IMG/VR virus record: IMGVR_UViG_2671181012_000022
Direction: 5' to 3' (one strand)
DNA from: a virus
Taxonomy: Duplodnaviria; Heunggongvirae; Uroviricota; Caudoviricetes
DNA length: 42,877 nucleotides
The position numbers are program-made. Each line of letters opens with the position of its first letter. Position 1 is the first letter of the stretch. Below are positions 36,001 through 39,000 of this stretch, piece after piece.

Positions 36001-39000
36001 AGGAGGCAGAATGTCTGCTTTGTATGAACGCTCACAGCTGACGCAGGTGATGATTTCATCTGCCCCGGCGACTGCTGAAACTATGGATAAGGCGGAATAT
36101 CTGCGCCTGGACTGCACCATCAAGGAAGTCCAGTTCACCGCCGGTCAGAAACAGGATATTGATGTGACCACGCTCTGCTCCACAGAGCAGGAGAACATCA
36201 ACGGTCTGGGGGCGTCGTCTGAGATTTCCATGTCGGGTAATTTTTATCTGAATCAGGCCCAGAACGCCCTGCGTGATGCTTATGACAATGACGCGTTGTA
36301 TGCGTTTAAGGTGCAGTTTCCGTCCGGTAAGGGCTTTAAATACCTGGCGGAAGTGCGTCAGCACACCTGGTCATCCGGTACCAACGGCGTGGTGGCTGCA
36401 ACGTTCTCACTGCGTCTGAAAGGCAAACCGGTGTCCTTTGTGGTACCGCTGGCGTTTGTGAAAAATCTGGATAAGACACTTACCGTGAATACCGGTGCGC
36501 TGCTGACAATGTCAGTCAGTGCCAACGGGGGAATGCCGCCGTATAAATACGCCTGGAAGAAGGATGGTCAGCCGGTTGACGGGCAGACGACAGACACCTT
36601 CAGTAAGCCAGGTGCGCAGTCCGCTGATGCGGGGAAATATACCTGCGTGGTGACCGATTCGGCAGAGAAAGCACAGAGTGTGACGTCTGTTGAATGTACC
36701 GTGACAGTGAGCGCAGCCGCCGGATAAGGGGATGGGGCATCATGAAAAAGGATCTGAAAACGCTGGCGCTGGCCAGACTGTCAGGGTTTCGTCATAAAAC
36801 GGTGAAGGTGCCGGAATGGGGTAATGTCAGCGTGGTGCTGCGGGAGCCTTCGGCAGAGGCCTGGTATCTGTGGCGGGAAGTGCTGGATGGCGGTGATGCG
36901 GGTGACGAACCCCTGTCGGTGGTGGCGAAAACCCGCCGTAACCTGGAAGCGGATGTGACGCTGTTCTGCGATGTCCTGTGTGATACGGACCTGCAACGGG
37001 TGTTCACTCCGGACGACCGTGAGCAGGTGCTGGCCGTCTATGGTCCGGTACATGCCCGGTTGCTGCGTCAGGCACTGGAACTGATCGCTGATGCAGAGTC
37101 GGCCAGAAAAAAGTAGCCCGCCCGGAAATTCGCTTTCTGATGCGACTTGCGCTCCGTCTGGGGCGCACCTTATCCGAACTGCGGCACAGCCTGAGTGCGA
37201 GCGAGGCGATGATGTGGATGGAGTTTGACAGGGTATCCCCGTTGGGTGATGAGCGCGGGGATATCCGTAATGCACAGATCGTGAAAGCGGTTTTCGGGGC
37301 ACAGGGGATGAATGTTGCACTGAAGGACGCCATGCTCTGCTGGGGCGAGGATGAGGATAAGCCGGAGGTGGATCCGTTTGCGGCGCTGGAAGACGCGCTG
37401 AGCTTTGCAGCACAGTCATGAATGATGAGAACCGCTGAGGCGGTTTTTTTACGCCCGGAGAAAGGTGAATGGCGACGTTACGTGAACTGATTATCAAAAT
37501 TTCGGCAAATTCACAGTCATTCCAGTCGGAGATCCAGCGGGCGTCCCGTATGGGCAGTGAATATTACCGGACCCTGCAGGATGGCGGACGTCAGGCTGCT
37601 GCGGCAGCCAGGGAGCAGCGCCGGGCTCTGGCTGAGCTGAACAGCCAGTTGACGGAAATCCGCGCTTCGGCTGTCGGAATGACCGGTGCGTTTGCCGGTG
37701 CCTTTGCCACCGGACACCTGATTTCGCTGGCGGATGAATGGAGCTCCGTGAATGCCCGTCTGAAACAGGCGTCGCAGTCATCGGATGAATTTTCGTCATC
37801 ACAGAAAGTGCTGATGGATATCAGCCAGCGGACAGGCACCGCATTTTCGGATAATGCGGCTCTGTTTGCCCGTTCGGCTGCCTCGATGCGTGAATATGGT
37901 TACAGTGCTGATGATGTGCTGAAGGTGACGGAGGCCATTTCGACAGGGCTGAAAATTTCCGGTGCCAGTGCGGCAGAGGCGGGTTCGGTGATCACCCAGT
38001 TCAGCCAGGCGCTGGCACAGGGGGTGTTGCGCGGCGAGGAATTTAATTCGGTCAATGAAAGTGGGGACCGGATCATTCGCGCACTGGCTGCAGGCATGGG
38101 CGTGGCCCGTAAGGATCTGAAGACGATGGCGGACGATGGTCAACTGACGGCGGATAAAGTCGTTCCCGCGTTAATCAGCCAGCTGGGGATATTGCGTGAT
38201 GAATATGCAGCCATGCCGGAAACGGTGTCTGACGGGATCACGAAGGTGGAAAACGCCTTTATGGCCTGGGTGGGCGGCGCGAATGAGGCCAGCGGAGCGA
38301 CGAAAACGCTCTCCGGCGCACTGAACGGTGTGGCCGGAAATATTGATACCGTGGCAACAGCTGCGGGTGTGCTGGTTGCTGTCGGGGTGGCCCGGTACTT
38401 TGGTAATCTGGCTTCCGGAGCGATGTCTGCCACGGCAGGACTTGTGACCGCTGCACGTAATGAAGTGGCACTGGCTGAGGCCCAGTTAAGGGGAACGCAG
38501 ATTGCCACGGCGCGGGCAAGGGCAGCCGTGTACCGGGCTCAACAGGCTGTGGCGGCAGCCCGCGGGACTGAGATGCAGATTGCGGCAGAGGCCCGTCTGG
38601 CGGTCACACAGGAACGCCTGAACAGAAATATTGCTGCCAGAACCGCCGCCCAGAATGCGCTGAACAGTACAACGGCGGTGGGCTCACGTCTGATGAGCGG
38701 TGCGCTGGGACTGGTTGGAGGCGTACCCGGACTGGTGATGCTGGGAGCTGCCGCATGGTACACGCTGTACCAGAATCAGGAACAGGCCAGGGAGTCTGCG
38801 CGCCAGTATGCACTGACGATTGATGAAATCGCGCATAAAACGCCATCAATGTCTCTGCCTGAAGCCTCAGATAATGAAGGGCGAACACGGGAGGCGCTGA
38901 CAGAGCAGAACCGGCTGATTGATGAGCAGGCCAGCCGGGTGAAATCCCTGCAGGAAAAAATCGCCGGGTATCAGTATGTGCTGGCTAATCCGGGCTGGAC

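Follow-up and report, generated by a model that had tools for sequence, protein, structure and literature searches.

The 42,877-nucleotide (nt) stretch of viral DNA analysed here (IMG/VR virus record IMGVR_UViG_2671181012_000022; Caudoviricetes), hereafter the window, carries at the very end of a gene for a G-like tail assembly chaperone the slippery heptamer A_AAA_AAG, which we interpret, with a probability of roughly 0.93, as a programmed -1 ribosomal frameshift site of the lambda G/T (HK97 gp13/gp14) kind. The site, which belongs to a lambda/HK97-like E. coli prophage, is real, in register and conserved, it has been verified in identical form in a published reporter assay, and it is already known. 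Reading the sequence directly, the codons AGA AAA AAG TAG lie at 37105-37116 in the frame of the open reading frame (ORF) that begins at ATG 36742 (positions 37100-37119 read CGGCCAGAAAAAAGTAGCCC). The stop codon TAG (37114-37116) adjoins the heptamer with zero spacer, just as the original prediction had placed it. That prediction had also described the -1 frame as open for a further 100 codons, and indeed this frame is free of stops from 37092 until the TGA at 37419-37421 and, counted from the slip, comprises 102 sense codons (37113-37418; VARPEIRFLMRLALRLGRTL...AAQS). Joined to residues 1-124 of G, the -1 extension makes a GT fusion of 226 amino acids (aa). An in-register X_XXY_YYZ heptamer within the overlap of two ORFs, as found here, is a feature of the G/T class.

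The heptamer taken by itself is uninformative. A_AAA_AAG occurs 19 times on the two strands of the window, as compared with 9.3 occurrences expected from shuffled sequences, and we therefore rejected its mere presence as stand-alone evidence; a survey of the window also showed that other heptamers are in register close to the end of an ORF and are followed by a long -1 extension, most of them in frames that are non-coding. The case must thus rest on context. In particular, the significance of the heptamer at 37107 comes from its register and its position at the end of a Phage_TAC_1 gene, from the T domain encoded in the -1 frame, and from the fact that this arrangement is kept in divergent relatives.

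The 0-frame product, G, matches Pfam family PF06222 (Phage_TAC_1) across profile positions 1-124 of 124 (E=3.9e-58, 195.2 bits; gathering threshold 25 bits), as well as phrog_344 'tail assembly chaperone' (E=5e-45) and the PDB entry 2OB9 'Tail assembly chaperone' (E=1.2e-44). It is 62% identical to HK97 gp13, and on identical DNA PGAP labels it 'phage tail assembly chaperone'. Its ATG at 36742 is preceded by AAGGGGATGGGG, with a score of -8.4 for pairing with the anti-Shine-Dalgarno (anti-SD) sequence. The extension matches PF06223 (Phage_tail_T) across profile positions 1-71 of 73 (E=6.1e-19, 68.7 bits; gathering threshold 25.9 bits), the same family to which lambda T belongs (E=2e-14, 54.1 bits), and it also matches phrog_337 (E=4.5e-42). 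Another PHROG profile, phrog_14766, aligns with G at positions 2-122 and with the extension at positions 125-224 in collinear fashion; because it spans both halves in 224 positions, it is a profile of fusion-length proteins. The extension had been predicted to be 'DUF4035-like', a description that holds for annotation names but not for the profile: Pfam assigns Phage_tail_T and returns no match to DUF4035 even at E<=10, whereas 'DUF4035 domain-containing protein' is the name given by PGAP to some 98%-identical copies, and is also that of the homologue in the OS31 record. Searches of NCBIfam with G, the extension and the 93-aa ORF annotated within the extension returned zero matches.

Direct evidence for frameshifting comes from the work of Antonov et al. 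2013 (NAR 41:6514, PMC3711429), in which predicted frameshift genes were clustered and 40 were tested by inserting the candidate sequence between GST and MBP, expressing the reporter in E. coli MG1655, and quantifying the products by anti-GST western blot. The 'Phage_TAC' cluster in that study (GeneTack cluster 862991913, from E. coli prophages) comprised 41 genes similar to an HK97 protein and yielded efficiencies of 6% and 7%. Positions 37087-37161 of the window (75 nt) are identical, without any sequence difference, to the listed insert with frameshift ID 15618692 (PMC3711429 Table S2), for which 7% +/- 0.79 frameshifting was measured in E. coli. The second insert, G_GGA_AAG_CCG_TAA, which resembles the site of phage mEp390, gave 6% +/- 0.61 (PMC3711429).

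Public annotation of this locus tells a different story. Records of identical or near-identical DNA, among them the PGAP annotation and the phage 2851 record, give T as a stand-alone 93-aa ORF from ATG 37140 with no join, whereas the HK97 RefSeq record and the record of Burkholderia phage KS9 give the homologous pair as a two-piece coding sequence with a -1 frameshift join, which the HK97 record notes is 'translated due to a -1 frameshift'. If T were an independent gene whose 93-aa protein began at ATG 37140, the heptamer would be incidental. We consider this very unlikely, even though nearly all public records agree on it and the Met at 37140 is conserved in 10 of 11 aligned relatives. Conservation of this Met is explained by its being part of an F-L-M motif in the protein, and KS9 carries Leu in its place. 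The anti-SD duplex energy of ATG 37140 is -3.5 kcal/mol, which is that of a random ATG (the median for all ATGs in the window is -3.0), whereas the 11 other gene starts that we scored range from -5.8 to -12.8; ATG 37140, which is without a Shine-Dalgarno (SD) sequence, is thus probably not a genuine initiation site. Moreover, in an alignment across the junction the -1 frame upstream of this ATG encodes an invariant Pro (CCG, 37122-24) and a near-invariant Phe (TTT, 37134-36), and between 37092 and 37140 that frame contains zero ATG, GTG or TTG codons. Since these conserved residues lack an in-frame start codon, they can be translated only after a shift from G. The downstream ORF lies in the -1 frame without a translation start of its own, as in other members of the G/T class. 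The fusion product of the identical cassette in the GST-MBP reporter and the coverage of both halves by phrog_14766 likewise speak against an independent T. The practical value of the site is one of annotation: the public 93-aa 'T' coding sequence, including that of RefSeq/PGAP on identical DNA, should be the 226-aa slippage product. The earlier description of the arrangement as an expected, well-known G/T-type frameshift is borne out in that the gene order, the protein families, the annotated joins of HK97 and KS9, and the 7% measured with the identical 75-nt insert all agree.

We compared the junction across a panel of 13 fetched phages whose G proteins range from 30 to 93% in identity, and for each of these we mapped the stop codon of G, any in-register heptamers and the reading frame used by the T homologue. 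Because the SW-37 record breaks off 5 codons past the slip site, the T frame is readable in 12 of the 13 phages; in all 12 of these, including the Burkholderia and Halomonas phages, T is in the -1 frame. An A-rich slip site of Lys codons occurs at the same aligned position across the panel, at the end of a ...DA-x-K-K motif. The site takes the form A_AAA_AAG in the window and in 2851, phi467, Pm34, OS31, phi644-2 and CB2a, G_GGA_AAG in SW-37 and mEp390, and A_AAA_AAA in KS9 and H4907. HK97 (L003 1163-1169) and ENT39118 have the non-canonical G_GAA_AAG, and in Klebsiella phage Kp4882-3 (L006 1190-1199) the sequence is GCA_AAG_TAA, with a -1 frame overlap of only 7 nt. Judged from their sequences, Kp4882-3 and HK97, which have no canonical in-register heptamer, must rely mainly on A-site or single-tRNA slippage of tRNA-Lys on A_AAG. 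The distance from slip site to 0-frame stop varies from 0 to 33 nt across the panel, and the directly adjacent TAG of the window is thus not a conserved component of the signal.

A larger set of 80 viral-contig loci adds numbers but little diversity, being mostly of one lineage at ~67% identity; T is in the -1 frame with ...AAA_AAA_AAG_TAG in 79 of them. The exception (IMGVR_UViG_2531839448_000005, ~1550-1575) has A7 rather than A8, which moves T to the +1 frame; a sequencing error in the homopolymer or a dead, inactivated copy is the probable explanation. We also sought a natural in-frame fusion of G and T; this locus, the only odd one, has T in the +1 frame and is no fusion.

The same protein would result if the extra base arose during transcription. 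Specifically, RNA polymerase could add one A to the A6 run and so produce an mRNA for an identical GT protein, in which the residues R-K-K-V-A would be the same and to which both reporter and mass spectrometry would be blind; the phi467 lineage, moreover, has a longer run of A8. Sequences prone to slippage often consist of one nucleotide repeated 8 or more times (Antonov et al., PMC3711429), but the run in the window is only 6 A (37107-37112). In addition, relatives with G_GGA_AAG share the arrangement although that sequence is free of long homopolymers, and 6% shifting was measured for one such sequence in the same assay, which indicates a ribosomal mechanism for the family. We therefore infer that the shift is ribosomal, and regard transcriptional slippage as extremely improbable.

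With a ribosomal shift, most ribosomes would translate 36742-37113 and stop at the TAG to yield the 124-aa chaperone G, while a minority (~7% by the published reporter) would slip one base back. The slip would occur with tRNA-Lys on AAA (37108-10) and AAG (37111-13), both of which would re-pair on A_AAA_AA; the shifted ribosomes would then read GTA (37113-37115) as the next codon, followed by GCC CGC and so on to the TGA at 37419-21, giving the 226-aa GT. Few heptamers shift as readily in E. coli as A_AAA_AAG, which is also where dnaX shifts, and the single tRNA-Lys of this species forms better pairs with AAA than with AAG (PMC5009743). The heptamer alone would set a low, fixed ratio of G to GT, with stimulatory RNA apparently unneeded. 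In lambda, the G:GT ratio is ~30:1 and is required for tail assembly (PMC5009743); G and GT bind the tape measure protein there and T binds the major tail protein, according to Xu et al. 2013 and 2014 as cited in PMC5009743. By analogy, the G part of both proteins would coat the tape measure protein, the T domain would recruit the major tail protein such that the tube polymerises to the correct length, and G and GT would both leave before the virion is completed.

Judging by family and frame, the pair belongs with HK97 gp13/gp14 and would work like lambda G/GT. HK97 shares with the window a PF06222 G protein, the match to 2OB9, the gene order and a T part in the -1 frame. It differs in having CGG_GAA_AAG at the aligned position, with no canonical in-register X_XXY_YYZ, and in a 0-frame that runs 5 codons further, to TAA, whereas that of the window stops at once; in addition, the T part and tape measure gene of HK97 are separated by the moron gp15, and those of the window only by a terminator-like hairpin. 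Lambda gpG/gpGT resembles the window pair in that a -1 shift of low frequency takes place close to the end of G, T is read in the -1 frame, and the pair is situated between the major tail and tape-measure genes (PMC5009743). The two T parts share PF06223, and a stimulatory structure is not evident in either system. The slippery site of lambda, which we take to be G_GGA_AAG, differs from the A_AAA_AAG of the window; the G proteins differ too, with lambda G in PF06894 (Phage_TAC_2) and window G in PF06222, and only the Pfam profile links the T parts. E. coli dnaX (gamma/tau), finally, has the identical heptamer A_AAA_AAG decoded by the same single tRNA-Lys, and reaches ~50% frameshifting through an upstream SD-like element and a downstream stem-loop. 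Neither stimulator was found at the window site, in keeping with the 7% measured. The products also differ in size: frameshifting makes the shorter of the two proteins in dnaX but the longer of the two here.

Several observations weigh against our interpretation or limit its reach. The reporter constructs also carried flanks of 18 nt upstream and 45 nt downstream that were not printed, so the identity with the window covers the listed insert only, and a GST-MBP reporter cannot tell ribosomal from transcriptional slippage. A frameshift fusion was shown for the reporter cassette, and the native GT protein of this prophage is only predicted, from the identity of the DNA. We found no stimulatory element: the downstream sequence folds no better than shuffles (z=-0.83), the consensus structure across the panel amounts to -0.1 kcal/mol and 2 pairs only, and for a dnaX-type upstream SD-like stimulator the anti-SD energy is -3.0 as compared with a background median of -3.4, with no conservation in the panel. 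The absence of stimulators is consistent with lambda and would mean that the heptamer alone sets the efficiency; both the 7% of the reporter and the low, fixed ratio of G to GT in lambda fit a bare heptamer. The presumed role in tail assembly is carried over from lambda, and pairwise BLASTP of window G and T against lambda G and T found zero similarity. Other points concern the prophage as a whole. The portal gene, at 31930-34478, is broken into two ORFs of 454 and 395 aa, the second in the -1 frame and overlapping the first at ATGA. For gpJ, located beyond the window, PGAP flags a frameshift in the closest genome. If the prophage is defective, the site may have no role in virion production in this copy.

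We rejected a downstream stimulatory structure; the local hairpin (GCGCUCCG...GGGGCGC) lies ~34 nt downstream and overlaps conserved LALRLGR codons.

The genes around the site follow the order of the G/T class, namely major tail, G, the T frame, and tape measure (Table 1), with a gene for a gpM-like protein (M, 40704-41045) downstream of the tape measure gene. The start of the major tail gene was taken from the PGAP annotation of identical DNA ('major tail subunit') and has an anti-SD score of -10.3; the tape measure gene, at 3243 nt, is equal in length to that of phage 2851. The hairpin between T and the tape measure gene, which the pattern scanner did not report, resembles a terminator inside the late operon and is no part of the shift signal. 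A second terminator-like hairpin (CCCGC-CGCGT-GCGGG followed by T6, 35974-35988) lies just 5' of the major tail gene start. The HK97 record places putative terminators at positions comparable to that of the hairpin following T, and one before gp12 is mirrored by the window hairpin at 35974-35988.

Table 1 Features of the window at and around the frameshift site.
Feature	Position	Strand	Evidence or remarks
Major tail (tube) protein gene, C-terminal Ig-like domain	36011-36727	+	Directly upstream of G; Pfam Phage_tail_2, Phage_TTP_11, Ig_3/I-set
G-like tail assembly chaperone gene, 124 aa, 0-frame product	36742-37116	+	Pfam, PHROG, PDB and HK97 gp13 matches
Slippery heptamer A_AAA_AAG	37107-37113	+	X_XXY_YYZ register, AAA and AAG in frame; direct read
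T-like -1 extension, 102 codons and TGA	37113-37421	+	Pfam PF06223, phrog_337, phrog_14766
Internal ATG, annotated start of a separate 93-aa 'T' gene	37140-37142	+	Public annotation
Terminator-like hairpin and T-run	37427-37450	+	Between T stop and tape-measure start; GAACCGC-TGAG-GCGGUUU, -10.8 kcal/mol, z=-2.57
Tape measure protein gene, 1080 aa	37469-40711	+	Pfam Phage_HK97_TLTM E=7e-89, TMP_3 E=1e-57, Tape_meas_lam_C E=2e-18
OmpC-like porin gene, 384 aa	41244-42398		Between tail genes M and L; Pfam Porin_1 E=2e-144

The site had also been taken to support a functional tail module, and here the claim holds in part: G/T, the tape measure gene and M are intact, with lengths equal to those of the inducible phage 2851, but against this stand the split portal gene, the porin gene found between M and L, and the PGAP flag on gpJ in the closest genome. 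Intactness of the G/T cassette is by itself insufficient to establish a working tail module. It could be that the site is a relic in a decaying prophage, intact in sequence and not used for tail building, and the split portal with its PGAP 'frameshifted' flag, the flagged gpJ and the inserted porin gene would all be in keeping with this. On balance we think it somewhat unlikely: the genes for G, T, tape measure and M are all full length and share 96-100% identity with their counterparts in inducible Stx phages, and the junction of the split portal recurs unchanged in 73 records from varied hosts and may thus be a viable allele. The relic explanation, moreover, concerns current use and not the identity of the site, and is compatible with a programmed frameshift. 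As for gpJ, the window is 99.95% identical to the closest genome over 9336-33788 and differs from it in repeat copy number; because the two are not strictly identical, the flag on gpJ in that genome may not carry over to the source of the window. The porin gene looks like a moron inside the tail operon: tail gene L starts near 42608 and runs off the window, whereas in phage 2851 L directly follows M. A strong terminator-like hairpin (42572-42589) follows the porin gene.

In phage 2851 the portal is a single 859-aa ORF. At the portal junction (33276-33294) the window has G5 where 2851 has G6, and nearby substitutions create both the sequence CTG_AAA_AAA_TGA (33283-33294) and a new ATG with a good SD sequence (-9.4). 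PGAP labels the split portal a 'frameshifted' pseudogene, and a 101-nt segment across the junction is identical in 73 E. coli records (human, marmot, deer). Three readings are conceivable for the split portal: decay of the allele, a gene that is split naturally, and a second -1 shift site. The last of these, in which an unannotated recoding site would give a short portal and a portal-extension fusion and this lineage would use A-run -1 shifting more than once, we consider a long shot. The C-terminal repeat domain of the portal continues in the -1 frame past the split. The 395-aa ORF (33291-34478) contains tandem repeats of ~54 aa (…HIPVPRDGRDYDPEVLQKAVNDAV…PADGKSITPDDVRPMLEQMVKEA…), and the window and the genome CP045712, near-identical elsewhere, have different numbers of these repeats.

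The cassette is widespread. A 771-nt segment spanning the site matches three E. coli chromosomes at 100% identity, and many Stx-converting and related lambdoid phages, 2851, YYZ-2008 and JLK-2012 among them, at 96-98%. A search of 5,426 complete E. coli genomes gave 1,251 matching records, and in 1,184 of these the best match was the exact cassette at >=99% identity; related copies of the cassette number up to 7 per E. coli genome. About a fifth of complete E. coli genomes carry the signal in identical form. As a textbook recoding signal that has already been measured with a reporter, the site holds little discovery value, and nothing novel is left in it beyond an effect that the TAG right next to the heptamer might have on efficiency. 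As a marker of an intact prophage tail module, an undamaged G/T cassette is useful, though insufficient.

Stx phages carry stx downstream of the antiterminator gene Q. No stx gene is annotated in the stretch of the closest genome that we fetched, and the prophage there looks like a non-Stx relative of the Stx-phage family. In that genome (NZ_CP045712.1 423389-425758, roughly window 15400-17800), genes for tRNA-Ile, tRNA-Arg and tRNA-Arg lie downstream of antiterminator Q, flanked by two DNA methyltransferase genes.

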